A DNA stretch of 64,000 bases from an uncultured cyanobacterium. Lineage in GTDB: Bacteria > Cyanobacteriota > Cyanobacteriia > Cyanobacteriales > CAWCAG01. Positions 3,632 to 41,898 of this stretch are shown in pieces. Location: contig CAWDOD010000007.1 of NCBI GenBank assembly GCA_963803805.1, forward strand, positions 192,001 to 256,000, in the 5' to 3' direction. Numbering within the stretch: position 1 is the first letter of the stretch; each line of letters begins with the position of its first letter. The notes beneath the pieces are model-generated. The model saw only the letters and a list, made by a program, of their open reading frames with translations. It did not search any database and had not been told where the DNA came from. A program made the position numbers and the translations under genes.

Positions 3632-5359
3632 ATGAAATCTTGCCTCGTAGCTAAGTATTTCCTCTCCTATTCGTTTTGTTTGCTATTAACTGGATGGTTT
3701 ACCACTACCCTTAGTCTTGCCCAAAACCCACCACCACCAGAAATAGAACCTCCTTCTACCCGTCCTCAACCTTTGGAATCACCACAAAAGCTGCCTCCAC
3801 CGGAAGACTTGTTACCTCCTTTACCTACTCCTACCCCACCAGACAATCCATCTCTCCCGACAGTTGAAACCTTTGAAGTTAAGGAAATTCAAGTAGAGGG
3901 TAGCACATTATTCACCGAAGCAGAGTTAAAGGAAATCATCGCCCCCTTCCTCAACAAATCCCTATCTCTGCCTGAACTTCAGCAGGTAGCATTAGCTGTA
4001 GAGAAATATTACCTTGAGCAAGGATATCTTACTTCGGGGGCTTATGTTTCCCGGTTCGACATTGGGGAAGGCATCTTAACTATTCAAGTAGTAGAAGGGG
4101 GCATAGAAAAGATTAGAATCACTGGTACAAAAAGACTCAATCCTAGCTATATTCGTAGTCGTCTTGCGATCGCTACCACAACTCCCCTCAACAAAGAAAG
4201 ACTCTTAGAAGCTTTGCAACTCTTGCGTAGTGATCCTTTGATTGATAGGATCAGGGCTGATTTATTGGATAGTTCCCGCCTCGGACAAAGTATTCTGGAA
4301 ATTAAAATAACCGAAGCTGATAGTTTTCGCACCGACTTTAGTTACAATAACCAGCGTTCCCCTAGTGTAGGGACTAATCGTTTAGGTTTGAGTTTCAATG
4401 AAGGGAATTTACTAGGATTAGGAGATTCCCTACGCCTAGGCTACTACCACAGCGAAGGCAGCGACAGTTTAGATTTTGGTTATGAATTACCTATTAATCC
4501 CCGTAATGGCAGCATTAGCTTTGCCCATGGTACAACCTCAAGTCAGGTAATCGAAGACCCCTTTGCCATCCTAAATATCGAATCAGACTCCCGCTACTAC
4601 GAAATCAGCCTACAACAACCAGTTAAACGCACACCCAGAGAAGAAATGACCCTTGGCTTAACAGCTTCACGCCAGGAAAGTGAAAGTTCTCTTTTAGGTA
4701 TTGCCATCCCTCTTGCTGTAGGGGCTGATGCCCAGGGGCGTGTCCGTGTCTCCACTTTGCGGTTTTTCCAAGAATGGGTAAAGCGTGGAGACAGGGAAGT
4801 AATAGCTTTGCGATCGCAGTTTAACTTAGGAGTAGGGGCAATGTCTGCCACAATCAACGAAGCTGAACCCGATAGTTTATTCTTCTCCTGGCGTTTGCAA
4901 GGACAGTGGCTGCGCCTACTTGCACCGGATACCTTGTTAGTAGTCAGGGGAAATGTACAACTTGCAGACCAAGCTTTACTTAGTTTAGAACAGTTCGGAA
5001 TAGGTGGGCAAAACACCGTCAGGGGTTATCGCCAAGATTTCTTACTTGCTGACAATGCTGCCACCGTTTCTGGGGAATTACGTTGGCCCATTTTACGGGT
5101 ATCTGATTGGGATAGCGTTTTACAGTTAACCCCTTTCTTTGACTTTGCCACAGTTTGGAATAATTCTAGGAATCAGGGACAACGTAGGGAATTAAATAAT
5201 CATAACTTAGCTTCTGTTGGTTTAGGTTTACGTTGGCAACAGGGGGATAATTTAGCCTTAAGTTTGGCTTGGGGTATTCCTCTGATTAGTGTCGATAGTT
5301 CAGAGAATACCTGGCAGGAACAAGGCTGGCATTTTTCGGTTATTTACAGTCCTTTTTGA
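3632..5359 (+). CDS. ShlB/FhaC/HecB-family two-partner secretion outer-membrane transporter (TpsB)
   Basis: Signal peptide, Pro-rich linker, POTRA-like YLEQGYLTSGA, VRGY motif (TVRGYRQD), C-terminal Phe. Confidence 0.92.
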   Translation: MKSCLVAKYFLSYSFCLLLTGWFTTTLSLAQNPPPPEIEPPSTRPQPLESPQKLPPPEDLLPPLPTPTPPDNPSLPTVETFEVKEIQVEGSTLFTEAELKEIIAPFLNKSLSLPELQQVALAVEKYYLEQGYLTSGAYVSRFDIGEGILTIQVVEGGIEKIRITGTKRLNPSYIRSRLAIATTTPLNKERLLEALQLLRSDPLIDRIRADLLDSSRLGQSILEIKITEADSFRTDFSYNNQRSPSVGTNRLGLSFNEGNLLGLGDSLRLGYYHSEGSDSLDFGYELPINPRNGSISFAHGTTSSQVIEDPFAILNIESDSRYYEISLQQPVKRTPREEMTLGLTASRQESESSLLGIAIPLAVGADAQGRVRVSTLRFFQEWVKRGDREVIALRSQFNLGVGAMSATINEAEPDSLFFSWRLQGQWLRLLAPDTLLVVRGNVQLADQALLSLEQFGIGGQNTVRGYRQDFLLADNAATVSGELRWPILRVSDWDSVLQLTPFFDFATVWNNSRNQGQRRELNNHNLASVGLGLRWQQGDNLALSLAWGIPLISVDSSENTWQEQGWHFSVIYSPF

Positions 5360-7014: not shown

Positions 7015-7045
7015 GATTTTAGGTTTGTTGCATTTTAATTAGCGG

Positions 7046-7077: not shown

Positions 7078-7094
7078 ATTAATTGTGTTTTCTA

Positions 7095-10000
7095 TCAATC
7101 GTTTCTCAACAAACAACTAGCAAAAGCCTGAGAAGTCAGTATAATTTCACCATCCGGTAATTCAAACCAACCTTGCACTTCTTGAATCGATTGATCTGAA
7201 TGAGATTGCTGTGTATCACTTAATGATGTAACCGATGTATTCAGACTATCAATACTACTACTCAATGGATCAGAAGGGTTAGAAGGTAAACCAGCCCTGC
7301 CGATGTCGATAAAGACAGAATTTTTCTCTCCATTACTTCCTACAGCACAACCTTCAGGTAAACCTTCATCTAAAAAACGATCATCTAAGGGATTAAGGCG
7401 CAGATTGTCATTAACATTGATCTCAACAGTACCATCAATTCCTAACTCAGAACTAGCAGTAAAATCGCTTTCAGAGGTGTTAACCTTTTCAAAGAGTCTA
7501 AAACCAAAAATCCCTTTTGCTGTAGCAGTAATATTACCACCTTGACCTTGTAAAGAACTGGCAATAATATCACTATCTTCTGCAAGAATCGCAACAATAA
7601 AGTCACCAACTCTCAGGGTCATATTACCACCGCTACCTGTACCATTCGCATTGGTCAAAATATCGCTATCCTGGCGCAGAATCACTGATTTATCTACAAA
7701 AAGTTGAATGTTACCGCCATTAGCATTAATTGTTTCTGTTGTCAGCCTTGCACCGTTGGTCATATTAACAGATTCTGCATTGACTAGTATGTCCCCTGCA
7801 TTACCTGAGTTGTTACCACTAAGATTAACTTGCCCACCATTTTCTATGTTTAACAGCTTTGTATTAATTTCAATACCTTGGGCATTACCAGAACCAGAAG
7901 AAGCAAAGACAAGACGACTAGCTTGACCACTATTGGCTACACCACTTACTTTCACTAAGTCTGAAGCATTAACAACTAAAGTTCCGCCTTGACCATCGCT
8001 AACAGTGGATGCGGATACTTCCCCTCCATCTTCAACCAGTAATTGACTGGTGTTAATGACAAAATTACCTGCATTGCCACCACCAAAAGTATCTGATGAT
8101 AAACCACTTCTAACCTGACCATTAGGGGTAGTACCTACAACTTTTACAAACTCTGAAGCATTAATAACAACATTTCCAGCTTGTCCTTGTCCTGATGTCG
8201 AGGCAAAAATCCTTGCACCTTCTTGAAGGGTTAATTGCTTAGTATTAACTGTTAAATTTCCGGCATTTCCTGTACTTGTTGCCCCTAAAAATATGCCGCT
8301 AAAGTTAGCATTGTTAACTGGATTAAAATCGTTACCGATCAAAGTAGCTGACTCGCTGGCATTAACAGTTATTGTCCCCCCTGTTCCTGTACCTTGACTA
8401 AAAGCAGAAACGAAAGAACCATTTTCTAGTTGCAAAGTCTTAGCTTGCATATCAATAACTCCTGCATTGCCATCACCGTTAGTGTTGACGAAAATAAAGC
8501 CTCTGTTTAAAGATATACCTTGTTCTGCGGTTAGAGTAATTTGTCCTGAATCTCCGTTACTGCCTAGGCTATTCATGTCAGCAATGTCACTATTAGCATA
8601 AATACCAGAAGTGTTTTCAATATTAATTTCTTGAGCATCAACACTGATATTTCCTGCTGTTGCTGTACCGATTATTGCCGTTGTACCAGCAGTCCTTGCA
8701 GATAATTCTGCACCATTTTGCAAGGTAAAACTGCCACCACTACTAAGATTAATATCACCTCCTTTCAGAGTAGATGTGTCTGTATAACTCTCATTAAAAA
8801 TTCCTTGAGATAATACCAAAGGCGCGTCGCTGTGGACTCGGACATTGCCTCCCAGTAATCCTCTAGCAAGAATCTCTGCATTAGTAGTAAGTGTTCCTGT
8901 TCCTAAGATAGTTACATCGCCACCATTACCACCGTAAGTATTAAGTGGTAAACCTCCTCCTATATTTTGATCAAGGGCAGAAGCATTTATACCACCTTGC
9001 AAAGTTGTATCTCCCCGTGAATCAATCTGTATAGAACCCCCTCCCTGTACTTCTCTAGTATCTATAACTCCATTAACTGCAATTCCTCCCGGTAAGCTAT
9101 TAGGAAAGAATTGATTTGTTAAAACGACTCTACCTCCGTCACTACCAGCAAACCCAAAAGCAGTAACAATTTCTCCCGTGGTAATATTGGCATTTGCTAG
9201 AGGTGTAGAAAATCTAGGCGGTGGGTTAGCAGTAAAGAAAGAATTACCATCAATTACACTGTTGTCAGGAGTAGGAATCCCCCCTAAAGCGTTCCAATCA
9301 ATGCCTGCCCGTATGTCTAAGGTTGGTCTAGCATTACCATTAATCGTCGGGACTGCTGTACCATCTGATAAATTAAAGTTTGCTAAATCACTATAGGTTG
9401 TAGTTGCGTTAATATTGTTTGTATTTCCAGGGTTAATAGAGTTATTTCCTGTTTCTAAATTATCAATTAATACATCGCCTAAAGCGACGCTACCTCCAGC
9501 TAGAATATGCAAAGAAGCACCCTGATAATCCCCTAAAATCACATCCCCAGAAGTAATAATTATTGGATCATCAGGACTAAATAAATCTCCTAAACTCCCA
9601 TCTAATTTCTCCACACGAAAATTCCCCCCACTCCAATAATGGGCATCACCACCCACTGCATTACCAGAACGCAAAGTTAAATCTCCCCCAGCAAACAAAC
9701 CACTATCAGGATGATTCAGGGCAAAAATATCCACTTTCTCATCACCCTGGACCAACAACTCTCCTCCCGCAGCAGCTACAAAAGGGTTAGTAACACTATC
9801 CCTAATCTTCACTTCGTTTGTCGCCACTAAGTTAACATCACCGCCACCTTGTACTTCACCAGTTAAATCTAAATTCCGTCCTACCAAGGTTAAATCTTGC
9901 CCCACAAGTAACTTACCTCGGTTAACAATTTCCGCACGGGGAACATTGTTTCCATACTGCAAACCAGGACGTATATTAACTGTTAAAAGAGGAGGTGCAT

Positions 10001-10463
10001 CGGGATTAGTAGCACTAAATTCTCTCCCATTTTCTAGCAACAAACTATCAGCAGTGCTAACGAAAAAAGACCCAGCAATATCTAAACGGGCATTTTCGCC
10101 AAAGAAGACACCGTTAGGATTAATTAAGAATAAATTTGCCGTACCGTCAACCCCTAAAGTACCTAATATTTCTGAGGGATTGTTACCAGTTACGCGGGTT
10201 AATATATTGTTGATTGCTGCTGGATTTTCAAAGTAAACCCGTTGCAATTCCCCGACATTAAACTGACTGAAACTGTGAAAAAGATTAGTACCACGAATAG
10301 CGCCGCCAGTGATTAATTCTCCTGGTAGGCCCTTGATTTGGGTATTGTTGATGATTTGGGAGTTTTCTTGTCCCAAGGTTGCATCAGGGGTGATTTGGGC
10401 TTGCAGAGGAGAAGCAGAGAAGAGGGTTGTAGTGAGTAGTAATAAGGTGGTTAGTTTGGACAT
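7095..10463 (-). CDS. Filamentous-haemagglutinin-family TpsA exoprotein (cyanobacterial type)
   Basis: Signal peptide + AQITPD; TPS domain NLFHSFSQF / NLFLINPNG; G/N-rich beta-helix repeats (GNAGNL, GQGGTL); C-terminal IGRAGLPSNP...IQEVQGW. Confidence 0.92.
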   Translation of the reverse strand: MSKLTTLLLLTTTLFSASPLQAQITPDATLGQENSQIINNTQIKGLPGELITGGAIRGTNLFHSFSQFNVGELQRVYFENPAAINNILTRVTGNNPSEILGTLGVDGTANLFLINPNGVFFGENARLDIAGSFFVSTADSLLLENGREFSATNPDAPPLLTVNIRPGLQYGNNVPRAEIVNRGKLLVGQDLTLVGRNLDLTGEVQGGGDVNLVATNEVKIRDSVTNPFVAAAGGELLVQGDEKVDIFALNHPDSGLFAGGDLTLRSGNAVGGDAHYWSGGNFRVEKLDGSLGDLFSPDDPIIITSGDVILGDYQGASLHILAGGSVALGDVLIDNLETGNNSINPGNTNNINATTTYSDLANFNLSDGTAVPTINGNARPTLDIRAGIDWNALGGIPTPDNSVIDGNSFFTANPPPRFSTPLANANITTGEIVTAFGFAGSDGGRVVLTNQFFPNSLPGGIAVNGVIDTREVQGGGSIQIDSRGDTTLQGGINASALDQNIGGGLPLNTYGGNGGDVTILGTGTLTTNAEILARGLLGGNVRVHSDAPLVLSQGIFNESYTDTSTLKGGDINLSSGGSFTLQNGAELSARTAGTTAIIGTATAGNISVDAQEINIENTSGIYANSDIADMNSLGSNGDSGQITLTAEQGISLNRGFIFVNTNGDGNAGVIDMQAKTLQLENGSFVSAFSQGTGTGGTITVNASESATLIGNDFNPVNNANFSGIFLGATSTGNAGNLTVNTKQLTLQEGARIFASTSGQGQAGNVVINASEFVKVVGTTPNGQVRSGLSSDTFGGGNAGNFVINTSQLLVEDGGEVSASTVSDGQGGTLVVNASDLVKVSGVANSGQASRLVFASSGSGNAQGIEINTKLLNIENGGQVNLSGNNSGNAGDILVNAESVNMTNGARLTTETINANGGNIQLFVDKSVILRQDSDILTNANGTGSGGNMTLRVGDFIVAILAEDSDIIASSLQGQGGNITATAKGIFGFRLFEKVNTSESDFTASSELGIDGTVEINVNDNLRLNPLDDRFLDEGLPEGCAVGSNGEKNSVFIDIGRAGLPSNPSDPLSSSIDSLNTSVTSLSDTQQSHSDQSIQEVQGWFELPDGEIILTSQAFASCLLRND

Positions 10464-10506
10464 GGTAGAGTTTTTCTATGAAGATTAGTTGAAATGAAAT
10501 TATGCT

Positions 10507-10739
10507 GTAGGGACGGCCTGCTTGCGTTATTTTTGTACCTCACAAACCGATAAGATTGGGTGATCTTTTCGGGGATTATTGGTGGGGAGGGGGACGTGTA
10601 GGGGCGACCCGCCTACGTTGTTTTTGTACCTCACAAACCAATAAAATTGGGTCGCCCTTTCGGGGTTTATGGGTAGGGAGGGCGACCCAAGATGATTTGT
10701 TTTTGGGTTGCCAAAGTTATGTCAACGGGTCGCCCCTAC
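10507..10739. repeat. REP elements left of RAYT (one degenerate partial unit + one full ~142-bp unit)
   Basis: GTAGGGGCGACCCG at 10598-10611 paired with CGGGTCGCCCCTAC at 10726-10739; internal TTGGGTCGCCCT/AGGGCGACCCAA palindrome. Confidence 0.85.
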
Positions 10740-11269
10740 GGATTGGGATGGGCGATCGCTTGGATATTCATTGAATCCGTTGCCCAGTCCAGAGGATTAT
10801 TGACAATGTAAGCTCGGATTTTTTCTAAAGCAAATTCGTCGGGAATAATTCGGTCATAAAAGTTTCTTTGCCATACTTGTAACTGGGAATTTCTGTTCGC
10901 AATTCTCCATTTTTTGGTAACTTGAGACTTGAACTGCCCAATGATGGCGCTTACAGAATTAGCTGTGGGGCCATTTCTTATTTGAGAAATAGGTTTAGGG
11001 AGAGGAAACTTTCTATTAATAATCATGATGCCATGAAAATGATTGGGCATAATAACATAGCTATCTAACTCAATGTAAGAACGTACTTTAGGAGTTATAA
11101 GCCATTCATGTTCTACAATTTTGCCAAGGGGAGAAAGTTGTACTAATCCGGCCACAATTTTGCTAAGAGTGCATTCTTTGCGGTAGGTACAAATAGTAAT
11201 AAAGTAAGCTCCCGATTGAGTATAATCATATCCCGGTAAACGACGGGAAGAACGATGGTAGTTAGACAC
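10736..11269 (-). CDS. REP-associated tyrosine transposase (RAYT, IS200-like Y1 HUH transposase)
   Basis: RLPGYDY...YFITICT, HUH motif VIMPNHFHGI, VWQRNFYDRII and catalytic Tyr in YIVNNP; flanked by GTAG-type REPs. Confidence 0.9.
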   Translation of the reverse strand: MSNYHRSSRRLPGYDYTQSGAYFITICTYRKECTLSKIVAGLVQLSPLGKIVEHEWLITPKVRSYIELDSYVIMPNHFHGIMIINRKFPLPKPISQIRNGPTANSVSAIIGQFKSQVTKKWRIANRNSQLQVWQRNFYDRIIPDEFALEKIRAYIVNNPLDWATDSMNIQAIAHPNP

Positions 11270-11302
11270 AATTTTTGGTGATTATTTTTGATTAATTATG
11301 CT

Positions 11303-11612
11303 GTAGAGGCGACCCGCCTACGTTATTTTTGTACCCCACAAACCGATAAAATTAGATGTTTTTTCGGGGATTATTTGGTGGGGAGGGCGACCCAATATGA
11401 TTTATTTTTAGGTCGCCAAGGTTATGTCAACGGGTCGCCCCTACGGATTGTTGGGTGGTGTGCGTAAGCGTAGCCATGCCGGAGGCTTATCGTACAGGTG
11501 ACAATTTAAAAATATACCCATCATCAAAATCATGTTGTAGGGGCGACCCGCCTACGTTATTTTTGTACCCTACAACCGATAAAATTGGGTCGCCCTTTCG
11601 GGGTTTATGGTT
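11303..11612. repeat. REP elements right of RAYT (full unit 11303-11444, partial unit 11537-~11612)
   Basis: GTAGAGGCGACCCG 11303-11316 with CGGGTCGCCCCTAC 11431-11444; GTAGGGGCGACCCG 11537-11550; internal spacers nearly identical to the left unit. Confidence 0.85.
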
Positions 11613-11623
11613 GGGGCTGAAAT

Positions 11624-14600
11624 TTAAACTCCAGGAACACGGATATAGCGATCAGGATTACTCGCTGTGTAATCAACAATTCGGTGTAGTGTACCTGCCC
11701 CACCACCATCAAAATTAGTGTTGTAGTGTGATTCTGAAAGAACAACTCGTTTGACTCCATTTTGGTAGTAAGTTTTCTCAACTACAGCTACATGATTTTG
11801 ACCATTCCTTGTCCATTGTGCAATATCACCTGGTTGAGGATCGCTAACGATATACGCTCCATTGGATAGCTGATAGTGCCATTGGTTTGCATTGCCTGAC
11901 ATTGAGTTTAAAGCGGCAGGATTACCTCCTAATTCTTTCACGCGCCCGTGCGCGTACCAAGTACAATTACCTTCAGTTCTACTGTATCCATCAACTAAAT
12001 TTGAGCCATAACTTGCCTGGGAAAAAATATTTCCTGTTGTGTAAAACTGAGGACGAGCTTTGAAATAGTTTACTCCTTGCTGAGTAAGTAGAGGTGTTTT
12101 AACAGTACCTCCGCCTCCACCTCCACTATCTCCGCTACCTTCACTTATATAATAAGCAGCAACATAACCCACCTGACCATTAGCTTCAATCTCATACCAA
12201 TCAGTCCGATTACCTGGATAATAAGCACCACCAGAAACTTGCTTGCGAATTGTCACCGCAGTTCCTTTAGGTAACTTGCCAATAATAGTAGAACCACTAA
12301 CAGAAGGTTTGTTGCGGAAATTGAGAGAAACATTACCTACATTAGCATTAACATGACCTTTCTTCGTAGTATTGCCAGGATCGGAACTGCCACCGGGTTG
12401 AATAGGAGGCTTAGAATTGGGATAGCCGAAAATGTAAGCACTGGGAACCCAATAAGCTTTACCATCACGCCAGTAACGATACCAGAGAGCATCAGGCTTA
12501 TCAGTCCAAATATCATTAACAGACTCCCCGTAAGTCCAGCCATCGAAATGCAAAGTCTTTTTGTAAGGTTCAGCTAAACCACTGCGGTCTTCATGCTTAG
12601 GGCTATTACGCAAAGCTACGCCAATACTAGGCCCTACCCAACCGGAGAAATTCTCCGCACGAAAATCAGTTGGTTGAGAAACAATATCGACATAGTAGGC
12701 AGCGACAAAACCTTGCTGCCCATCTACCTCGACTTTGTACCACTCATCACTTAAACCATTCTCGTAACTTTTTCCTTTGACAGACTCCAAAACCTTCAAA
12801 GTTTTTCCTTTAGGAAGCTGGCCAATCAGATTATCTCCTCTTACTTCAGGAGAAGTTCGGAAATTGAGAGGGTCATTTCCTACTTTAGAATTAACCACAC
12901 CAGATTTAGGTGGTGCAGGCTGAGGTTGAGGCTTGGGACTAGGGGGAGGGTTGGAACCAGTTGCGCTACCTGTGAAGAATTTCTCAATGCCACGGGCAAT
13001 AGCATGACCCGCTTTTTCTACATTGCCACGGCTCATCCCTGGTGCATCAATAAACAAAGATTCTGTGAGAACGGCAGGAACCCCTAAAGGAGCATTGCGT
13101 AATACAGATAAATCTTTTGTTTTTACTCCCCGATTAGGAATCTCGTTATCAGGAAAGACAGCATCTAGTTCACTGTTGACAGCTTTAGCTAGTTCAGAAT
13201 CAGCACTGGGTGCATTGGGATGAGAATAAACTTCGTGGCCTTGGGCATCCTTGTTAAAGGCATTGAGATGCAAAGAAACAAACAGATCGTATCCAGCAGC
13301 CCGTTGACCAATCTGTGCTAAGGATATAGCTTCATCAAGGATTTTTACCTCTGCACCGAGTTGGCGTAGGTGTTCAGCAACAATTTTTGCTTGGTGTAAG
13401 TTTTCTGTTGCTTCATTTGTACCATTACCACCAGCACCAGGATCGAACCCTGTATCAGTAATACCATGGCCTGGATCGAGGATAATCTTTTTACCAGCGA
13501 GGGTATTAGTATTTGGAACTGGAAAGTTTTGGAAAACAGCACGTTCCCAAGGAGTAGTTGGTTCTTTCCCGATAGGAGGAGTTTGCTGCAATTTGGGGTT
13601 GTATACTTCTGGGTCAACGGTTCTTGCCAAACTAACTGCCGCAGCAATGTTTAGCAATCCTGCCCCTGTTTCTAAATCTTCTCCTAACTCGTTTATATCT
13701 GCTGCTGTAGATTTGAGGATGTCAATTACTTGGCGATAATTCAAATTAGGGTTCGCAGCCCAAACTTGAGAGGCAGCCCCCGTTACCTTCGCGGTAGCAA
13801 CAGAAGTACCAGCCATTGTCCCTACACCATTACCAACAGTAGATACGACTGGAGTTTCTAAGTTGCCACCATTAGCAACAATGTCCAACCCTTCGCCATG
13901 ATTTGAATATTCAGCCCGATCAAAGCCTTGCCAAACAGAAGTTTCACCACTAATTTGTTCTGCTGAACCTACGGTAATAACGTTATCAAAATGCTGAGAA
14001 GCTTGTCCCAAAGCTGACATAACTTCACCCTCATTTCCTGCGGCAACGGCAACGAGAACATTGTTTTGACGGGCATATTCTAAAGCTGCCATTTCTGAGG
14101 GGGTAAACTCATAACGGGTGGTTTCTACACCATCAATATCAATTTGAGTTAAATCAAAGCTTAGATTTGCGATTCCATTAGGTTGCCCCGACTCCCTAGC
14201 TGCATCTACAAACTCCATTAAAGATTCCGCCCATTCACCTGAACCAACAGCCCTTCCTAACCAAAGGGGTGCATCATCATTGATACCATCAATCCCAATA
14301 TCATTATCATTCTGGGCTGCGACAATACCTAAAACATGAGTACCATGTTCATTGCCTTCTCCTGGGGTTAGCAAAGGGTTAGCATCGTTGGCAATCTTAT
14401 CTGTTCCTAAACTAATTTTTTCATAGTCTAAGTCAGGATTATCACCACTAAATCCAGTATCAATAAAGCCAATCAGAGGTTGGTCTTCAACAGGGAAATT
14501 ATAATCGGTAACAGGAGGATCTACTTGAGGGTTAGCATATTCTAAAATAGCTTCCCCTAAATCGCTGTCTCGCCACTCTTTCCCCTCTTCAATGACATTA

Positions 14601-15424
14601 TCTAGTAATTCAGCTTCTCCGGTTGCCCCACGTACTTGGAAAATTAAATCGTTGTAATCCCTATCAGAGTTATCATCAACCCGCCAGTCTTCCATCACAA
14701 AGGTGTTGCCATCCCCCGTTACATCAGCAATTTGTCCTAAATGGAAAGCATCATCAGGGTTGGCTGTAGCCACAGAGAAAAGAGGACGCAAATTACCTTT
14801 GTCAGGATTATCGAGAAACTCTTCTACAGTGCCGTTAGGAATAAGCATAAAACCGAAGCGATCGCCCGGCTTCATTTTTACAGGATCTCCTTGTTGATAA
14901 ATACCAGAGTTACGATCAGCTTCTCCTAATTCCCCGGAAAATTTTGCCCCTTCAGTAGCATCAGAAATAACAACATGACCTAATTCAGAATCACTCAAAG
15001 CTCGGTTAGCAGCTTCAAAACTAAAGTCTTCCGACTCTGGGTTCAACCCTTCTAAACTAAAGATGGCTAACTCTCCTTCGTAACCACCACCATCAAAGAG
15101 GAAGTCAACGGTTACTTCCCCAGTGTCCCCAACAGTAAAAACCCCTGAGTCGAAGTTGGGGGAAGAGATATCAGCTATTTCAGCTATTTGATCTGTTTCG
15201 AGTTCATCAAAGAAGCTAATCGGCTCTAATTCTTCATCGCTAAAGTCTTGGTCTATTTCTGCTAAAGGATCAATATCTTCTGGTAGATCAACGTCGAAGA
15301 GGGCTAAGTCAACCCCGTCATCACCGCCATCTAATAGCCCACTGGGGGTAAGAATTGGTTCTAAAATAAAGGCTTGAATTTTGGATTTGCCAGAACGAGA
15401 AGAGTTATTTTCAGGTAGTGCCAT
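11624..15424 (-). CDS. Multidomain exported hydrolase: LEP-type leader, DUF4114-like domain, subtilisin S8, N-acetylmuramoyl-L-alanine amidase (Amidase_3), SH3b-like repeats, CHAP
   Basis: FILEPILTPSG (aa 19-29); MEDWRVDDNSDRDYNDLIFQV; S8 triad FIDTG / EHGTHV / GTSVA; amidase LDPGHG..NEA..SLHLNA..VLTE; SH3b LNFRTSP and LNFRNKP; CHAP GNCTWY...HVAVVE. No Sec signal, no RTX repeats. Confidence 0.88.
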   Translation of the reverse strand: MALPENNSSRSGKSKIQAFILEPILTPSGLLDGGDDGVDLALFDVDLPEDIDPLAEIDQDFSDEELEPISFFDELETDQIAEIADISSPNFDSGVFTVGDTGEVTVDFLFDGGGYEGELAIFSLEGLNPESEDFSFEAANRALSDSELGHVVISDATEGAKFSGELGEADRNSGIYQQGDPVKMKPGDRFGFMLIPNGTVEEFLDNPDKGNLRPLFSVATANPDDAFHLGQIADVTGDGNTFVMEDWRVDDNSDRDYNDLIFQVRGATGEAELLDNVIEEGKEWRDSDLGEAILEYANPQVDPPVTDYNFPVEDQPLIGFIDTGFSGDNPDLDYEKISLGTDKIANDANPLLTPGEGNEHGTHVLGIVAAQNDNDIGIDGINDDAPLWLGRAVGSGEWAESLMEFVDAARESGQPNGIANLSFDLTQIDIDGVETTRYEFTPSEMAALEYARQNNVLVAVAAGNEGEVMSALGQASQHFDNVITVGSAEQISGETSVWQGFDRAEYSNHGEGLDIVANGGNLETPVVSTVGNGVGTMAGTSVATAKVTGAASQVWAANPNLNYRQVIDILKSTAADINELGEDLETGAGLLNIAAAVSLARTVDPEVYNPKLQQTPPIGKEPTTPWERAVFQNFPVPNTNTLAGKKIILDPGHGITDTGFDPGAGGNGTNEATENLHQAKIVAEHLRQLGAEVKILDEAISLAQIGQRAAGYDLFVSLHLNAFNKDAQGHEVYSHPNAPSADSELAKAVNSELDAVFPDNEIPNRGVKTKDLSVLRNAPLGVPAVLTESLFIDAPGMSRGNVEKAGHAIARGIEKFFTGSATGSNPPPSPKPQPQPAPPKSGVVNSKVGNDPLNFRTSPEVRGDNLIGQLPKGKTLKVLESVKGKSYENGLSDEWYKVEVDGQQGFVAAYYVDIVSQPTDFRAENFSGWVGPSIGVALRNSPKHEDRSGLAEPYKKTLHFDGWTYGESVNDIWTDKPDALWYRYWRDGKAYWVPSAYIFGYPNSKPPIQPGGSSDPGNTTKKGHVNANVGNVSLNFRNKPSVSGSTIIGKLPKGTAVTIRKQVSGGAYYPGNRTDWYEIEANGQVGYVAAYYISEGSGDSGGGGGGTVKTPLLTQQGVNYFKARPQFYTTGNIFSQASYGSNLVDGYSRTEGNCTWYAHGRVKELGGNPAALNSMSGNANQWHYQLSNGAYIVSDPQPGDIAQWTRNGQNHVAVVEKTYYQNGVKRVVLSESHYNTNFDGGGAGTLHRIVDYTASNPDRYIRVPGV

Positions 15425-15468
15425 TTTAATTATCTGGTAAGAAAAATCAAATTTGCTGTCTTACCTTC

Positions 15469-15518
15469 TTCTCAGGGTGATAAACCACTATTTATGCACT
15501 GAGATACATTTCTTTACA
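15469..15518 (-). promoter_or_regulatory. Shared upstream motif, copy 3 (TGTAAA-N15-GCATAA-N18-GAGAA), before the hydrolase cargo
   Basis: Plus strand ttctc 15469-15473, ttatgc 15492-15497, tttaca 15513-15518. Confidence 0.6.
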
Positions 15519-15559
15519 ATCAGAGCCTTTAACCCATAACTTCAGTAAAAGTATAGTTT

Positions 15560-15610
15560 TGTAACAAAATCGGTAATTGTGCATAAAAGACTAGGGGTCA
15601 GACCTGAGAA
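15560..15610 (+). promoter_or_regulatory. Shared upstream motif, copy 4 (TGTAAC-N15-GCATAA-N19-GAGAA), before the GT4-M50-HlyD operon
   Basis: tgtaac 15560-15565, gcataa 15581-15586, gagaa 15606-15610. Confidence 0.6.
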
Positions 15611-15671
15611 CAAATAGAAGGCTCAACTAATTCCATAACTAACCATCTGTTTTCTCTTGCCATAACCAACC

Positions 15672-16865
15672 ATGTTCAAACAAAAACCAGGGCAGCACTT
15701 TTTCTTACTTTTCCCCAACATCTTCAACTTCAAAGGGGGTATACAAGTTTACTCTCGCTTTCTTTTAGAAACTCTCCAGGATTTATATCCTGAAGCTAGT
15801 TATGAAGTTTTTCTGAAATACGACAGTAAATTCCCTCAAAACCATTCCTTTCTGCCGCAAACTAACTTTCACTGCTTAGGTAAATTTCCTCGTTGGTGGC
15901 AAAGTTTCTTTTTATTACTACAAACAGTTATTCTTGGTACTTTACAACGCCCAACCTTAGTTATTGCCACCCACATTAACTATGGAATAGCCTGTTATTG
16001 CCTGAAAAAATTAACTGGCACTCCCTATTGGGTTGTCATTCATGGTTTGGAGGGGTGGAACATAGAAAATCCTCTGTTGCAAAGGGTTTTACAATCTACT
16101 GATAAAACCATTGCGGTAAGTGAGTATACCAGGAAACGTTTGCTTAAAGAACAACCGCTTTCCCCCCAACAAGTAGCTATTTTACCAAACACCTTCGATC
16201 CTACACAATTTCGCCCTCAACCAAAACCAGCTTACCTGCAACGGCGTTATGGTTTAACCCCAGATCAACCTGTAATTCTGACGGTAACTCGCTTAGGGAC
16301 TTCAGCAACCTACAAAGGTTACGAACAAGTACTTCAGGCTTTAGTTAAGCTACGTCAACAAATCCCCAACTTACATTACCTTTTAGGTGGAAAAGGGGAT
16401 GATCTTCCCCGAATACACAGTTTAGTACAGCGACTCGATTTAACTGACTGTGTAACTTTGACAGGATTTATTCCTGATGAAGAATTATGTGACCATTACA
16501 ATCTTTGTGATGTCTTTGCTTTACCTAGTCGAGGTGAAGGTTTTGGCATTGTCTATTTAGAAGCCCTTGCCTGTGGTAAGCCCGTATTAGCAGGGTGCGG
16601 GGATGGGGCAGTAGATCCTTTAGGGCAAGGAGAATTAGGTTGTTTGGTGAACCCAAATGATGTTGCAGAAATTGCGGCTAAACTCCAAGAAATTTTAGAA
16701 AAAACTTACCCTAATACTTTGCTATTTTCTCCCCATCTACTCCGGGAAAAAACTATCAGACGTTATGGTGTAGCTCAATTTTGTCATACCTTAGCTAATT
16801 TGGCTGACTTTGAGACATCGGTAGCAAATCCCCGTCCCTACCCATCATTGATAACTGGTAACTAA
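15672..16865 (+). CDS. GT4-family (GT-B) glycosyltransferase
   Basis: KGGIQVY N-terminal motif, YKGYEQV, EGFGIVYLEALACGKPV (EX7E signature). Confidence 0.92.
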   Translation: MFKQKPGQHFFLLFPNIFNFKGGIQVYSRFLLETLQDLYPEASYEVFLKYDSKFPQNHSFLPQTNFHCLGKFPRWWQSFFLLLQTVILGTLQRPTLVIATHINYGIACYCLKKLTGTPYWVVIHGLEGWNIENPLLQRVLQSTDKTIAVSEYTRKRLLKEQPLSPQQVAILPNTFDPTQFRPQPKPAYLQRRYGLTPDQPVILTVTRLGTSATYKGYEQVLQALVKLRQQIPNLHYLLGGKGDDLPRIHSLVQRLDLTDCVTLTGFIPDEELCDHYNLCDVFALPSRGEGFGIVYLEALACGKPVLAGCGDGAVDPLGQGELGCLVNPNDVAEIAAKLQEILEKTYPNTLLFSPHLLREKTIRRYGVAQFCHTLANLADFETSVANPRPYPSLITGN

Positions 16866-16866
16866 A

Positions 16867-18300
16867 ATGGCTGATTATAGTAACTGGATTTGCCCTGATA
16901 TTAGACCCTACTGGAAACTAGTGAGGGAAAAGAATTCTCAGCAATTAGTCCTTGCTGCAATTCAGGGGGAAGCTAAACATTTTCTCTCTGCAACTGAAGC
17001 CTATGCTTTACGATACTTTGTCGGCAAACTTACTGTAGTCCAAGTACAAAAGAACTGCAACAAGAGGCTGCAAACTGCTGCTTCCCCTAACTTGGTAACA
17101 GAATTAATAGCAAAACTGATTAAGCTTGAGGTTATTTCCTTGGAAAGTGATTCGGAGTTGGCAAAGCCTCAAAGTCCCCAATCACATCAACTTAAACCCT
17201 GTTTACAATGGGTTAAACCTGCCCCAGAATATTGGATTTTGCGTAACCCGGAAGATGTTACCTTTCTCCAGTTTGATAACCGTAGTAAGGAAGCGGTTGA
17301 ACAAATTGGGCAAATACCTCCCCAGGAGATTGTTCATCGGTTTGACATCACTCCCCAAGAGTTACAATACCTGCTGCAAATACTGGCAGCAACGGGGATG
17401 TTAGCTGGAACCCATCCTGGTAAACCGAAAAAAGGTAAGTTTCATCCTATGCAACTACTATTTTTTAAGCTTAAACTCTTCAATCCCGATCCTTGGTTGA
17501 CTAATGGGGTTAAATACTTGCAGTGGATTTGGACTTCCGCTTTCAGTTTCATACTTTGCATTTTCTTAGGATTATCAGGGGCAGTAGGATTTAATCAACG
17601 GCGGGAAATTCTCCACCAAGGGCAGGAATTGTGGTTAAGATCAGGAACTTCCTTGCTCTTCTGGTTTGCAGTTCTTTCTTTAACAGTGGTAGCTTTGCAT
17701 GAACTTGGCCACGCTTTTACCCTTAAGCATTATGGGGGCATTGTTCCGGAAGTTGGCTTACTCTTCATGTGCCTCTTTCCTGCTGCCTATACCAACACCA
17801 GTGATTCCTACTGCTTGCCTAAATTTAAGCGTGTTTTAGTTGTGGGGGCGGGGATAATTGTACAAGTTACTTTAGCTGCGGTGGGTTTGTTATTCTGGCA
17901 CATTTCCCTTCCTGGAACCTGGTTGCATACTGGTAGCTTTCTCCTTATGGCTGGGGCTTTATTCACTGTCACCATTAATCTTAATCCTTTAGCTAAGTTC
18001 GACGGCTATTACCTCGCCGTTGCAGCTACAGGCATCAACAACCTCCGCAGCCGTGCCTTTGGTTTGTATGGTAACTTGCTCCGGTTGCAACCGATACAAG
18101 AAACCTGGCGCGATCGCCTGATTTTAGCAGTCTATGCCCCTTTTAGTCTTGTTTATATTTGGTTTGTGTTCGGTTTCCTTTTTTATCGCTTAGGAGACTG
18201 GATTTTAAGCAATGTACCCATGACAGCCCTGATTTTGCTAATTATCTGGGCAATTTATTTTTACTTTCCTCGCTCCTCCACTGCAAAATCAGAGAGCTAG
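16867..18300 (+). CDS. M50 (site-2 protease-like) intramembrane metallopeptidase with two N-terminal PqqD/RRE-like domains
   Basis: HELGH (HExxH) at 17698-17712 and NLNPLAKFDGYY within TM segments. Two N-terminal repeats of strands + helices ending TELIAKLIKLEVI and QYLLQILAATGML. Confidence 0.85.
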   Translation: MADYSNWICPDIRPYWKLVREKNSQQLVLAAIQGEAKHFLSATEAYALRYFVGKLTVVQVQKNCNKRLQTAASPNLVTELIAKLIKLEVISLESDSELAKPQSPQSHQLKPCLQWVKPAPEYWILRNPEDVTFLQFDNRSKEAVEQIGQIPPQEIVHRFDITPQELQYLLQILAATGMLAGTHPGKPKKGKFHPMQLLFFKLKLFNPDPWLTNGVKYLQWIWTSAFSFILCIFLGLSGAVGFNQRREILHQGQELWLRSGTSLLFWFAVLSLTVVALHELGHAFTLKHYGGIVPEVGLLFMCLFPAAYTNTSDSYCLPKFKRVLVVGAGIIVQVTLAAVGLLFWHISLPGTWLHTGSFLLMAGALFTVTINLNPLAKFDGYYLAVAATGINNLRSRAFGLYGNLLRLQPIQETWRDRLILAVYAPFSLVYIWFVFGFLFYRLGDWILSNVPMTALILLIIWAIYFYFPRSSTAKSES

Positions 18301-18332
18301 AAACAGGTATTACCTATTACCCATTACCTATC

Positions 18333-19895
18333 ATGAATAACCCAAACTTGCCTCAAAACACACCAAAGTTTCGTGTTGTCCCCTCTAAAACGACCAAAAA
18401 ACCACAACCCCAAACTCCTCCTCCAGAACCTCAAGATAAACAAGTTGCAGAAGCAGTTAATTCTAATCAGGGTAGGAAAAAATTAGTTATTCTAGGGGGC
18501 ATCTGCTTGGGATTAGGAATTCTTGCTTTGATTCCCATACCTAATTATGTTACTGGCAAAGCGGAAATAACCTCCCGTGTTAATGCCCGACAACGCTTGA
18601 CAATGCCCGTTGATGGCATTGTGGAAATTAAGGTAGAAAGTAACGAAGAAGTGCAAAAAGGAGATGTTATTGCTACAATTGATAGTCCTGAATTAGATAA
18701 AGAAATTGCCCAAGCAAACCGTTCCCTCAAGGAAGCTAAAGGGGAACTAACGGCAGCTAAAAATCAATTAAGTTTGAGTAAAAGCCGCTTAAATCTCGCC
18801 CAGCAAGAAGAAGCGATCGCAACTTCTCAAGTAACTAGGGAACATCGACAGTATGGTGATGCCCCTAAGTTACGTCAATTTGATTATGAACAAGCCGGCA
18901 TACAGGAGGAGATTACAGGGGTACAGAGTGAGATAGTTGGTATTAACAGTCAAGTTGTTGCTACTAAAAATAAAATTGTCGGATTGCAAGGAGAAATTGC
19001 CGGTTTAACCCAACAGCTAAGTAATGTAGAAGAACGTATCCAAGCGAGAGAATATGTGTCAACTCAAGGAGGCTTAGCAAGATTAGATCAAGAAACGGCA
19101 GCTTTGAAGATACAAAGAACTGAGTTAAATAACGATATCAGCCAAAAACGCCACCAAATCATCAACCATGAACAAGAAATTGTCCAAATTCAAAGTCAAA
19201 TTAAACAACGGCAAAGTGTAATTGCTAGCAAGTCCAAAGATATTAATTCCCTATCTGAACGAAGCAAGGATGTTAATCACGAATTGGGAGATGATTTGAA
19301 TAGTTATGAAAATAGTTTAACTCTTAAAGCTGCTCAAAGAGACACTGCAACCAAAGATTTTGAGGCAACAGTAGCCCAGGTGAATAGTAAAACTCAGTTG
19401 GTAGAACAGTGGGAAGATGAGGTGGCAAGGTTAGAGGCACAAAAGAATAATTTGACCTTAATTGCCGAAACTCCAGGGACTGTAATTACCCAAGAGATAG
19501 ACTTAACCAGTAATAGTAGCCTCCAAGCAGGGGAAGATATTTTAGAAATAGCAGATTTGAAGCTTTTAGAGGCTAAGGTTGCAGTACGTCAAGAAGATCA
19601 TAACTTGGTTCAGGAAACCCAAACTGTTACCTTCCAACCCAAAGATGCTAAGAGTTCCCGTTACAAAGCTAAAGTGCAGGAGAAAGATTCTATCATCATC
19701 GTCGAAAATCCTGGAGAGAGTCCCAAGTTAGGAGTAAGAATCTTGATTGAGAATGATAATAAGTTACTGTTACCAGGGGGTGAAGGTTATGCCCATATTA
19801 AAACTGGCAAGATGCCTATTTATAAAAAAGTTAACCATGAGTTGAGTAAGTTAATTGATTTGGGTAAATATTTCCCTTGGTTAACTGGTGAATGA
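18333..19895 (+). CDS. HlyD/membrane-fusion periplasmic adaptor with a very long coiled coil
   Basis: Start taken as ATG 18333 (the track start at 18159 overlaps the M50 gene). Single TM, lipoyl halves MPVDGIVEIKVESNEEVQKGD and AETPGTV, ~250-aa heptad region, LLPGGEGYAHI. Confidence 0.88.
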   Translation: MNNPNLPQNTPKFRVVPSKTTKKPQPQTPPPEPQDKQVAEAVNSNQGRKKLVILGGICLGLGILALIPIPNYVTGKAEITSRVNARQRLTMPVDGIVEIKVESNEEVQKGDVIATIDSPELDKEIAQANRSLKEAKGELTAAKNQLSLSKSRLNLAQQEEAIATSQVTREHRQYGDAPKLRQFDYEQAGIQEEITGVQSEIVGINSQVVATKNKIVGLQGEIAGLTQQLSNVEERIQAREYVSTQGGLARLDQETAALKIQRTELNNDISQKRHQIINHEQEIVQIQSQIKQRQSVIASKSKDINSLSERSKDVNHELGDDLNSYENSLTLKAAQRDTATKDFEATVAQVNSKTQLVEQWEDEVARLEAQKNNLTLIAETPGTVITQEIDLTSNSSLQAGEDILEIADLKLLEAKVAVRQEDHNLVQETQTVTFQPKDAKSSRYKAKVQEKDSIIIVENPGESPKLGVRILIENDNKLLLPGGEGYAHIKTGKMPIYKKVNHELSKLIDLGKYFPWLTGE

Positions 19896-19914
19896 AGTTT
19901 TTCACTTTCCTTAA

Positions 19915-20253
19915 GCTGTTAATGATATTAAACGAGCTGTTCGAGAACGAGCAAAATATCTCTTTTACTTAGCTATTAACGAATTTCTTGAATTTGACAA
20001 CTATAAATTACGATCTGCTGGTAAAAAGTGGGAAGTTTACGAACTAGGTGCTTCTCAAATTGATTTGTCACATCCCTACGAAAATTCAGTTCAAATAACA
20101 CACATTTTTATTGACGAACAAAATAAAAAGAGTTCAAAAACATTTGAATCTTTCCCCCGGACAGGAAAAATTTCCAGAATGTTTGCGGAAAATTCTATCA
20201 GGGCTAACAAACATAATCTCTGGCCTGGCTACTTTGCGAAATACTATGAGTGA
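19915..20253 (+). pseudogene. Start-less open frame, probable gene remnant of unknown function
   Basis: Frame open from 19915 (after TAA) to 20253: AVNDIKRAVRERAKYLFYLAINEFLEFDNYKLRSAGKKWEVYELG...WPGYFAKYYE*; no ATG in the 5' half. Confidence 0.35.
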
Positions 20254-20449
20254 TTCTCATGTTATATCCTATAAACCATTAAACCATCAGAGCATCACGC
20301 AAGGTTAGCTTTTAATTCGGCTAAAACACTTTGTTACTTTCTATTTGAAACGAAAGAGTATCAAGTGCAGAAGAAAAACGTATCATCTAATAGCTAGAAG
20401 TTTATGGAAAAGCTTGGTAAAATGAATAATCACTCAAACAAAATTAGAA

Positions 20450-40240: not shown

Positions 40241-40292
40241 TTGTAAAATTCAGAACTAAAAATTACCACCTATTACCTATTGCTTGAAAATA

Positions 40293-41898
40293 ATGAAGGA
40301 TTCAACAGTTTTGCCTGTAACTCTTAAACAATCTCCGCGATGGTCTAGAGCCATTTTATGGACGATGATTAGTTTTACAACTTTTGGCATTACTTGGTCT
40401 TATTTCGCTACGATAGAACAAGCAATTACAGTTACAGGGAAACTCAAACCAGAAGGTAATGTTCAAGAAATTCAAGCTCCTGTAGGAGGAGTAATCAAAG
40501 CTATTCATGTTGAGGAAGGAAGCCAAGTACAACCGGGGGAGGGCCTTAATTAGCTTTGATGTTACTACTAGCCAAGCAGAATTGAATGCTTTACAAAAGG
40601 TTCACGACTCTTTAAAAGCAGAAACTGAATTTTATCGCACTCTTTTAGACAAAGCCAATACTCAACCTTTAACAGAAGCTAGAATTCTGGCTTTAAATCT
40701 TCCTAAGAATATAGTAGATTTAGCTTTGAATCGTACTGCTTTAATAGCGGATAATCAATTTCTTCGTAGTCAAATAAATGGTAATCAACCTGATAATAAA
40801 TGGGACAGAGATAAAACAGGGCGCTGGCACTCTACTAAAAGTTATTTAGATTCTGCTACTGCGGCTCAAGGTTTAGAAATTGAACAGAAACAACAACTAT
40901 GGCGACAAAACCAAATTGAACTAGAAAATGCTCGTAAACAGTTAAATACAGAGCAAAAAATTTTGCAAGAAATTAGCCAAAAAAATCAAATTACTACCGC
41001 TACAGCTAAAGATAGTTTAGTTCTTGAGCAAGAGATTTTTGCTAGCCTTGAACCTCTAGTTAAAGAAGGAGCTGTTTCTCAAGTTTACTACCAACGTCAG
41101 GCTCAAGAAGTCAAGCAAAGCTATCAGCTTTTTGAGCAAGAAAAATATCAAGGGCTTATTCAATATGAACAACAGCTACAACAAATCAAAAACATTCGTG
41201 CTGAAATAGCCAAATTAACAGCAGAAGGTAAACGTTTAAAACTAGACACCTTAAAAAGTAAGGAAGAATTAATTAGTAGTAAAGCAGCTTCAGAAACAGA
41301 ACTTTGGGAGCAAATTGCTAACAATAATCAGCAAGTTGCTACCATTAATAGCCAAATTGCTAAAAACATTGTTGAAAATAAAAAACGTTTAGCAGAAGTT
41401 GCTGGAAAAATGAGTAGCTTCCAGCAAGAATTAAAGTATCAACAATTAAAAGCCAGTTCTTCAGGTACTGTATTTGACTTACAAACTAGCTACCAAGAAG
41501 TTGTTAAAGCTGGAGAAACGGTTATGAAAATTGTTCCAGAATCCAAATTGGTTGCAGAGGTATTTATTCCTAATAAAGATATCGGTTTTATCCAACCAGG
41601 AATGCCAGTTAGTGTACGAGTAGAGACTTTTTCTTTTAGCGAGTTTGGTGATATTAAAGGAGAAGTTATTTCCATAGGTTCTGATGCTCTTCCTCCCAAC
41701 GAAACTCATCCTTTCTACCGTTTTCCAGCTAAAATAAAATTAACAGAACAGGTCATTAATTATAAAGGCAATCAACTATCTTTACGCTCAGGTATGTCTA
41801 TTAGCGCTAGTATTATGATTGATACTGACCGTAAAGTTATTAGTTTGTTCGTAGACCTTTTTGATAAAAAAATAGATGCTCTTAAAAGAGTGCGTTAA
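40293..41898 (+). CDS. HlyD-family T1SS membrane fusion protein, with a one-base frameshift in the G-run at ~40535-40543
   Basis: ORF 40284-40553 (LKQSPRWSR, TM, IQAPVGGVIK..VEEGSQVQPG) joins ORF 40507-41898 (ALISFD...KDIGFI...LRSGMS) when one G is removed. Confidence 0.85.

Follow-up and report, generated by a model that had tools for sequence, protein, structure and literature searches.

Little has been mapped of how cyanobacteria secrete proteins, and many exoproteins of these organisms carry no recognisable signals. The locus described here lies in a window of 64,000 nucleotides (64 kb) from an uncultured cyanobacterium (contig CAWDOD010000007.1) and encodes a giant hydrolase with an N-terminal tag, an M50 metalloprotease and an HlyD-family periplasmic adaptor, parts of which are known from several described systems. 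Intramembrane M50 proteases with HExxH and NxxPxxxxDG motifs belong to pathways for peptides that are made on ribosomes and modified after translation (RiPPs), namely EpeP/YydH, the daptide protease (NF041824) and TglG/TmoG. The M50 protease SpoIVFB removes the N-terminal pro-sequence from pro-sigma-K, a protein which is not membrane-integral; it carries a CBS domain at its C-terminus and acts together with SpoIVFA and BofA. An N-terminal leader, an inner-membrane leader protease and an HlyD adaptor in a diderm cell are the logic of PCAT/AMS transporters with HlyD and of type I secretion. The adaptor EmrA has an N-terminal transmembrane (TM) helix, a lipoyl domain, a long hairpin and a beta-barrel, and no membrane-proximal domain. 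Finally, the RiPP enzymes ThcOx, TbiB1, LynD/TruD, CteB and TigE contain RiPP recognition elements (RREs) or PqqD domains with a beta3-alpha3 winged-helix fold, which stand in tandem in ThcOx; several RRE copies are given for this enzyme in PMC8795117.

In filamentous cyanobacteria the genes of the tagged giant protein, of the M50 protease and of the HlyD adaptor make up a conserved module. Its parts come from known families (RRE-like fold, M50, EmrA-like adaptor, S8, GT4), while the comparison suggests that their combination is apparently undescribed. The RiPP M50 proteases act on short peptides, whereas the putative substrates here are multidomain enzymes of 700 to more than 6000 amino acids (aa); furthermore, no modifying enzymes are linked to the module and the protease has a periplasmic adaptor as its neighbour or fusion partner. 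Unlike SpoIVFB, the protease has N-terminal RRE-like domains, an adaptor as partner and next to it an extracytoplasmic-type hydrolase instead of a sigma factor. In contrast to PCATs the locus encodes neither a C39 nor an ABC domain and the tag has no conserved double glycine; a double-glycine leader was rejected, as the GG found after the tag is not conserved in 29 leaders. Type I secretion differs likewise by its ABC transporter, and in the tagged protein of the window neither an RTX repeat nor a C-terminal signal was recognised. Compared with the RRE/PqqD-containing RiPP enzymes, the domains found here show no detectable PqqD sequence similarity and are fused to a membrane protease. The adaptor is closer to EmrA/MacA than to anything annotated as HlyD of type I secretion, but its hairpin is longer than that of EmrA, its neighbour or fusion partner is a protease and not an MFS pump, and an [LF]xVVPP motif is conserved. 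Because the defining tests for type I secretion, PCATs and the curated RiPP M50 families fail, we place the module outside these groups. A literature search, which did not cover all journals, found no description of an M50-HlyD-tagged-subtilase module and none of the motif strings. The preprint 10.64898/2026.06.08.730779 was considered as a prior description and rejected, since it deals with a different Anabaena protein.

Four genes were identified at 11.6-19.9 kb of the window by open reading frame (ORF) calls and translation (Table 1): the giant hydrolase, in the following called cargo, on the reverse strand and, divergent to it and all on the forward strand, genes for a GT4-type glycosyltransferase, the M50 protease and the HlyD-family adaptor. 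The M50 gene starts 1 nt past the stop of the GT4 gene. The listed HlyD ORF opens at TTG 18159, while ATG 18333, 32 nt behind the M50 gene, agrees with the N-terminus of the homologues and is preferred as start because of their nearly invariant N-terminal residues L13/V15/V16/P17/P18. Genes, domains and coordinates had been proposed in a first-pass annotation made from the letters alone and were borne out by ORF calls and Pfam, as were the tight gaps of 1 and 32 nt (the latter with the start at ATG 18333). The same annotation called the locus pump-free. This holds for 11.6-19.9 kb, where neither an ABC nor an RND gene is present; a separate C39-ABC cluster lies further off. Promoter and terminator scans of positions 11200-20500 gave the same counts as in shuffled sequences and are hence uninformative. 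PADLOC returned for five proteins of the locus just one generic subtilase match and one coiled-coil match, and a known defence system was rejected because of these merely generic matches.

Relatives of the M50 protease were scanned for in one genome per species. Of the 442 relatives found the best 80 loci were kept, and their ORFs were called and searched with the window proteins. Loci with at least 9 kb upstream and at least 8 kb downstream of the M50 gene, 33 in number, are referred to as fully flanked; statements about clades come from a quick tree with SH-aLRT support only. All loci with an assigned lineage belong to the Cyanobacteriota, and the lineages are of the filamentous type. The adaptor gene directly follows the M50 gene in 52 of the 80 loci, is fused to it in frame in eight and is absent in 16, while four loci reach the contig end at this point. 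The eight in-frame fusions argue for physical coupling of the two proteins. That HlyD is a part of the system, as the first-pass annotation had assumed, is supported by its fold and, among the 76 judgeable loci, by those in which it is adjacent or fused, but not by the loci without it. The latter are the Nostocales and Microcoleus/Tychonema clades in their entirety and two loci of Phormidium, and the two clades still keep the M50 gene with a tag-bearing subtilase. Therefore the adaptor is either dispensable for at least part of the function or encoded elsewhere, and because it was lost in two clades the minimal conserved pair consists of the protease and the tagged protein.

A tag-bearing protein of at least 300 aa is encoded at a distance of 71-2765 bp from the M50 gene in 21 of the 33 fully flanked loci, and one more locus (L020) adds a split copy. 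The co-occurrence with the M50-HlyD operon that the first-pass annotation had predicted is therefore found, and it spans many families. Counted over all loci, the tagged protein gene lies upstream on the same strand in 17 cases, divergent in ten and downstream of the M50 gene in six. Cargo-like neighbours amount, by search and clustering, to 36-41 ORFs or loci; they have the tag, the S8 domain and usually DUF4114 in common with the window cargo, while the C-terminal parts differ. Unbiased clustering of 912 ORFs resulted in two widespread families only, M50/adaptor (80 loci) and tagged protein (36 loci), and in no regulator consistently linked to the M50 gene. ORFs similar to ABC nucleotide-binding domains (NBDs) occur in three of the 80 loci, none of them within 3 kb of the M50 gene, so that homologous loci have no consistent ABC partner there, in line with the first-pass annotation. 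A transporter beside the M50 gene was found neither by Pfam in 140 ORFs from 12 loci nor among the recurrent neighbour clusters. Several genomes harbour at least two paralogous M50 modules (L016/L035, L004/L007, L010/L077, L002/L011); in Aerosakkonema a single contig bears two complete modules (L002, L011) about 15 kb apart, both of which include a tagged giant of their own.

The tag begins with a basic, aromatic start (M-x-[WL]-F-x-F-x-x-K-K...G-F), which is followed by about 15 variable residues and by [FV]-I-L-E-P-I-L-T-P-S-G; an acidic stretch comes after it in the window cargo. L21, T26, P27 and S28 are the sole invariant columns in 29 aligned leaders, and beside the invariant proline a second one is mostly conserved. 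A profile built from these leaders was searched against 1.84 billion cluster representatives (50% identity) and matched 177 of them at E<=1e-3, of which 60 also pass E<=1e-10. In every match listed (the best 150 of the 177) the matched region is confined to residues 1-92 and in most cases starts with residue 1, and 140 of these 150 show a near-invariant 12-residue core. Because of this core and the constant N-terminal position the tag is far beyond chance, and the suggestion that FILEPILTPSG is a true shared tag was confirmed by the profile search together with the leader alignment. Among the same 150 representatives, 87 have at least 700 aa (up to 6442 aa), 46 have less than 300 aa and may be fragments, and none has a signal-peptide-like stretch, that is a 12-residue window of at least 2.0 in the first 70 residues. 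Pfam finds S8 in 29 and DUF4114 in 21 of 34 sampled tag-bearing proteins, combined with variable C-terminal modules (CHAP, M23, phage-type lysozyme, LysM, SH3b, LGFP, Calx-beta, PPC, CARDB, Laminin_B). No Pfam or NCBIfam model covers the tag, and the source names of the matched proteins ('S8 family serine peptidase' and similar) include no system-specific name. A single-sequence word search with cargo residues 1-60 gave five matches and was underpowered. In the quick tree the tag varies with the M50 clade: ALDDIITPSV in Nostocales, ILERI[IV]TPSA in Microcoleus/Tychonema and PLE[QE]ILTPSP in Geitlerinema. In one Coleofasciculus genome (L016, L035) there are two paralogous M50 genes, and a separate tag variant is found next to each of them.

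The window cargo is composed, in this order, of tag, acidic linker, DUF4114, S8 subtilase, Amidase_3, two to three SH3b domains (a further SH3 copy lies near residues 860-920) and CHAP. Its S8 domain scores 110.3 bits against a Pfam cutoff of 21.8 and has the triad motifs DTG 322, HGTH 360 and GTSVA 539, and the CHAP domain has the motifs CTWY 1154 and HVAVV 1211. Triad motifs are also present in 25 of 27 S8 neighbours of the related loci. The cargo had been described before as lacking a Sec signal and an RTX tail, and hydropathy and Pfam agree with this: a Sec/Tat-type h-region was not found, as no 19-residue window has a mean Kyte-Doolittle hydropathy of at least 1.6, and Pfam recognises no RTX repeat (HemolysinCabind). 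It is not an arbitrary passenger, since tag, mostly DUF4114, and S8 subtilase constitute a conserved core.

The zinc-site motifs of the M50 protease are HELGH at residue 278 (17698-17712) and NLNPLAKFDG at residue 371 (17977-18006). No variation is seen among 21 aligned sequences at H278, E279, H282, N371, P374, D379 and G380, and all 21 aligned homologues match PF02163 at E<=1 (best 9e-8). In total 359 homologues are detectable, of which the 120 best listed are 44-100% identical, the named ones being cyanobacterial. Going by sequence profiles, the protease is a relative, not a member, of the NF041824 and NF058609 families. The N-terminal part of about 190 residues consists of two repeats. Some homologues have a third copy and the Microcoleus-type clade keeps the second one alone (the tblastn match starts at query residue about 96), the RRE copy number thus ranging from 1 to 3.

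In an AlphaFold2 (AF2) model of the M50 protease (mean pLDDT 74.7) two beta3-alpha3 domains precede a helical membrane domain; the first of them comprises the strands E16-20, E27-31 and E37-40 and the helices H42-48, H57-68 and H76-86, and the second copy spans residues 114-175. The best match found by Foldseek in the PDB is the cyanobactin oxidase ThcOx (5lq4, E 6.9e-4, probability 1.0). TbiB1 with bound leader (5v1u) is matched with a TM-score of 0.69 and a root-mean-square deviation of 3.2 Å over 83 columns, and TruD, LynD, TigE and CteB are further RRE matches (probability 0.94-1.0 for the RRE set). The membrane part matches MjS2P (3b4r) and the SpoIVFB:pro-sigmaK complex (8vjl, 0.98) with probabilities of 0.97-0.98. 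The first-pass annotation had spoken of two PqqD-like domains, with AlphaFold as a means to check them: the model does contain tandem RRE-like domains, but neither Pfam nor the PDB profile search recognises PqqD. Because sequence methods miss PqqD, RRE is to be understood here as a fold-level label on a moderate-confidence model. A complex prediction of M50 residues 1-190 with the leader alignment scored 0.21 and 0.09, where the mark is 0.32, and says nothing on binding. In the ESM Atlas similar M50 clusters of about 400 aa occur in Bacillota and Actinomycetota, and one Actinomycetota cluster has PqqD on 10% of its members, which is a lead only.

The adaptor passes the Pfam cutoffs of HlyD_D23 and HlyD_3, and reaches 35.3 with TIGR01843 (cutoff 208.65). 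Its AF2 model (pLDDT 84) comprises a disordered cytoplasmic tail, a single TM helix (residues 48-75, or 49-64 in the model), a lipoyl domain, an alpha-hairpin (119-372) and a beta-barrel (375-495), and no membrane-proximal domain. Each hairpin arm has about 125 residues, and across homologues the hairpin totals 201-318 residues. Foldseek matches it with EmrA (4tko, E 9.4e-17), EmrAB-TolC, MacA, AcrA and MexA, and by this predicted fold the HlyD protein is a genuine periplasmic adaptor. The cytoplasmic [LF]xVVPP motif is nearly invariant in the alignment of adaptor homologues. The predicted topology, with RREs inside, about six TM helices, a C-terminus inside and then the adaptor TM helix, is consistent with the in-frame fusions.

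The GT4 had been regarded as a core part of the system and as a candidate for glycosylation of the cargo. As a core component it was rejected: orthologues (E<1e-50) exist in only five of the 80 loci (L010, L025, L031, L048, L065), or six by clustering, and their position varies between upstream of the M50 gene and downstream of HlyD. Nothing links the GT4 to glycosylation of the cargo. It scores 111.6 bits with Glycos_transf_1 (cutoff 26.4; E 4e-32) and 45.6 bits with Glyco_transf_4 (cutoff 28.5), and no specific NCBIfam equivalog is reached. The protein also passes PF20706 ('GT4 in conflict systems', 36.7 versus 26 bits), while the generic GT-B families score much higher and PADLOC gives no match for it. 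Besides the GT4, a parvulin-type peptidyl-prolyl isomerase (PPIase) and a small secreted protein turn up as accessories now and then. The parvulin-type PPIase, without signal peptide or TM helix, is encoded directly before the M50 gene or after the adaptor in six of the 80 loci. In five loci a signal-peptide-bearing protein with a W-P-[ND]-G-C motif is encoded in the interval from the tagged protein to the M50 gene; where complete it has 316-333 aa, the copies of L065 and L011 are shorter, and an example had no Pfam match. In the adaptor-less clades a conserved small protein follows the M50 gene, which has a signal peptide and a tail of VPEP, a hydrophobic stretch and a basic end, and which we take to be PEP-CTERM-like.

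A functional module is very likely because of the linkage, the near-invariant N-terminal tag, the RRE-like fold on the M50 protease and the in-frame fusions. That it handles very large extracytoplasmic-type enzymes by tag-guided processing and adaptor-coupled export has in our opinion an even chance of being right. Recognition and cleavage of the tag by the RRE-M50 protein can be inferred on good grounds; we also infer the export with its route and its energy source. The one to three cytoplasmic RRE-like domains would bind the tag, much like RiPP enzymes bind leader peptides, and would present it to the intramembrane zinc site, so that the tag is removed at the cytoplasmic face of the inner membrane. 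This step would resemble the cut of SpoIVFB in the pro-sequence of soluble pro-sigma-K. The dedicated and sometimes fused EmrA-like adaptor could then couple it to the crossing of the periplasm, toward an outer-membrane channel encoded elsewhere. The M50 protease EpeP of the epipeptide pathway is thought, according to PMC10885120, to cleave and export its peptide.

Several findings weigh against tag-guided processing with adaptor-coupled export. The module encodes no energy source or translocation channel, we know of no M50 protease that moves a large protein, and Pfam recognised no outer-membrane factor gene (OEP/TolC) among the 40 window ORFs scanned. An adjacent adaptor is missing in 16 of the 76 judgeable loci, and in 12 of the 33 fully flanked loci no tagged protein is encoded within 10 kb of M50-HlyD, the neighbours there being unrelated housekeeping genes. 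Adaptors dock to outer-membrane factors by the motif R-x3-L-x6-S at the hairpin tip. This motif is absent from the window adaptor; 11 of 25 adaptors have it in a loose form, some of them off the tip, and the strict form is found once, off the tip. The window protease matches PF02163 only weakly (19.6 bits, cutoff 27.2), and with NF041824 (daptide intramembrane metalloprotease, E 2.4e-37) and NF058609 (YydH/LiaK, E 7.3e-11) it reaches 129 of 300 and 42.2 of 225 bits, respectively. PF05402 (PqqD) matches none of the 21 M50 homologues at E<=1, and the PDB sequence-profile search returned no RRE but only the site-2 protease 3b4r at E 0.047; the RRE assignment comes from the predicted fold only, with pLDDT 74-83 in these domains. 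The clade-wise tag variants, too, can be explained by shared ancestry; the paired paralogues in Coleofasciculus are more telling than this clade-wise variation.

A pump-less export route of diderm bacteria, with a tag read by RREs, the M50 protease as inner-membrane partner of the adaptor and no ATPase, seems rather unlikely to us, and to the same degree we doubt that M50 proteases represent a fourth class of adaptor partners beside ABC, RND and MFS. If it existed, directionality might arise when the acidic linker and the cargo domains fold outside the cell or bind Ca2+. The closest structures of the adaptor partner MFS and ABC pumps (EmrA 4tko, 8zal; MacA 3fpp, 5nik), every adaptor that we know of works with an energised pump, and the cNMP-C39-ABC cluster with HlyD 17 kb away demonstrates that such pumps exist in this genome; the outer-membrane factor is already unlinked. 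These points would fit a leader peptidase with a tripartite exporter in trans, in which the RRE-M50 protein trims the tag and the adaptor joins an ABC, MFS or RND pump and a channel encoded elsewhere, which means a split type-I-like or PCAT-like pathway and not a pump-less one. We regard this as possible, albeit doubtful: none of the 80 loci has an ABC NBD within 3 kb of the M50 gene and no transporter is among the recurrent neighbours, eight loci fuse the adaptor to the M50 protease and not to a pump, and the nearby C39-ABC transporter has an adaptor of its own.

The match of the membrane domain to the SpoIVFB:pro-sigmaK complex allows for another explanation, which does without export. The tagged enzyme could be an inactive cytoplasmic pro-form from which the M50 protease cuts the tag on a signal, and the wall hydrolase would act from within or after a breach of the envelope, for example in a programmed lysis which fragments filaments, with the adaptor-like protein as periplasmic sensor or scaffold for the protease. 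The origin of all 80 loci from filamentous-type cyanobacterial lineages, the wall-lytic cargo modules (Amidase_3, CHAP, M23, lysozyme, SLT) and the persistence of M50 and tagged protein without adaptor in two clades could be read in this way. However, LysM, SH3b, LGFP, Calx-beta and PPC modules as well as an S8 protease suit an extracytoplasmic location, a genuine adaptor with a hairpin of about 125 residues per arm would be an odd choice for a sensor, and no regulator is consistently linked; we are therefore inclined to consider such a regulated activation improbable. If, on the other hand, the adjacency were accidental and the motif merely a family-specific sequence, one would understand why 12 of 33 fully flanked loci have no tagged protein near the M50 gene and why the GT4 is mostly absent. 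Yet 21 of 33 loci encode a tagged protein within 3 kb, in varied orientations and in many families, and the motif keeps its N-terminal place and stays near-invariant in proteins that otherwise differ. Because of this linkage, the tag profile matches and the near-invariance of the tag, the absence of any functional link is effectively refuted and hardly deserves credence.

The genes surrounding the locus are unrelated to the module. A complete, separate type-I-like cluster is found at 32736-41898, 17 kb from the locus; because this cNMP-C39-ABC plus HlyD cluster is complete, the genome also possesses a conventional leader/ABC/adaptor layout. A two-partner-secretion (TPS) set is located at 800-10463. 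The gene of a REP-associated tyrosine transposase (RAYT; 10736..11269, reverse strand) lies inside a repeat region (10498-11608) and is flanked by four REP-like repeats of about 80-100 nt each at 10498, 10589, 11294 and 11528, whose core GGCGACCCGCCTACG was found three times, while 0.04 occurrences are expected. A RAYT gene also adjoins the tagged protein in L001, L052 and L054. CHAT, CHASE2, DUF928 and DUF1822 genes recur near the M50 gene in 6-7 related loci, and DUF2441 and RecQ genes are also present around the locus. The dihydrouridine synthase (Dus) gene at 42235-43249 (reverse strand) is split into two overlapping ORFs, of which 42641..43249 matches positions 2-160 of the Dus profile and 42235..42696 matches positions 159-303; the gene is either frameshifted, a pseudogene or affected by an error of sequencing.

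Table 1. Position of the module, its domains and other features in the window; positions preceded by a locus number refer to the related loci.
Feature	Position	Strand	Length and basis
Tagged multidomain protein (cargo)	11624..15424	-	1266 aa; ORF and Pfam
Tag core FILEPILTPSG, residues 19-29	15338..15370	-	occurs once in six-frame translation of the window
Strongly acidic linker, residues 31-90	15155..15334	-	net charge -12 and -10 per 30 residues
DUF4114, residues 184-266	14627..14875	-	Pfam E 1.1e-25
Peptidase_S8, residues 315-589	13658..14482	-	Pfam E 1.4e-31; D/H/S motifs
Amidase_3 (N-acetylmuramoyl-L-alanine amidase), residues 647-813	12986..13486	-	Pfam E 7.2e-24
Bacterial SH3, best stretch residues 1033-1094	12143..12328	-	SH3_3 E 2.7e-19, 2 stretches
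CHAP, residues 1150-1231	11732..11977	-	Pfam E 1.8e-12; Cys and His motifs
GT4-type glycosyltransferase	15672..16865	+	397 aa; Pfam; co-transcribed by position
RRE-RRE-M50, predicted intramembrane metalloprotease	16867..18300	+	477 aa; NCBIfam, AF2 model, Foldseek
RRE-like domain 1, about residues 9-90	16891..17136	+	beta3-alpha3; DSSP of model, Foldseek
RRE-like domain 2, about residues 110-178	17194..17400	+	beta3-alpha3; AF2 model, Foldseek
M50 membrane domain, about 6 TM helices	17479..18270	+	hydropathy, motifs, Foldseek
EmrA/MacA-like periplasmic adaptor (HlyD family)	18333..19895	+	520 aa; Pfam, hydropathy, alignment, AF2, Foldseek
Two paralogous RTX/PMP-repeat proteins	within 32736-41898		583 and 580 aa; Pfam
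PPIC-type PPIase	within 32736-41898		Pfam
cNMP-binding + C39 + ABC transporter, with own HlyD	37325..41898		971 aa, HlyD 463 aa; Pfam
CHAT-TPR protein	800..3466	-	
ShlB/FhaC-type transporter	3632..5359	+	
TPS-domain protein	7095..10463	-	1122 aa
Parvulin-type PPIase	L010:9196-9954, L077:7969-8727, L070:9058-9879, L020:7928-8680, L033:2279-3043, L011:13110-14057		
W-P-[ND]-G-C protein	L003:7678-8670, L009:7957-8907, L012:8733-9734, L065:7967-8512, L011:1-519		
Small VPEP-tail protein	L073:11092-11766, L079:11134-11826, L069:5409-6101, L072:4053-4754, L074:3120-3794, L076:1230-1907		
Small VPEP-tail protein, Nostocales	L060:11406-11825 and relatives		

By the tag, giant subtilase and wall-hydrolase proteins are united in a family that comprises at least 177 clusters (50% identity), and the module is a specific candidate machine for them, for which the natural M50-adaptor fusion argues in favour of a physical complex. 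If tag-guided processing and adaptor-coupled export are true, RRE-guided leader recognition would extend from peptides to megadalton-scale enzymes, a protease would join the list of periplasmic-adaptor partners, and a portable export or processing tag would be available for cyanobacterial biotechnology. Should even the pump-less route be true, RRE-type leader recognition would not be confined to small-peptide natural products. For the organisms themselves the wall-lytic cargo suggests a role in filament fragmentation, cell-wall remodelling or the killing of competitors.

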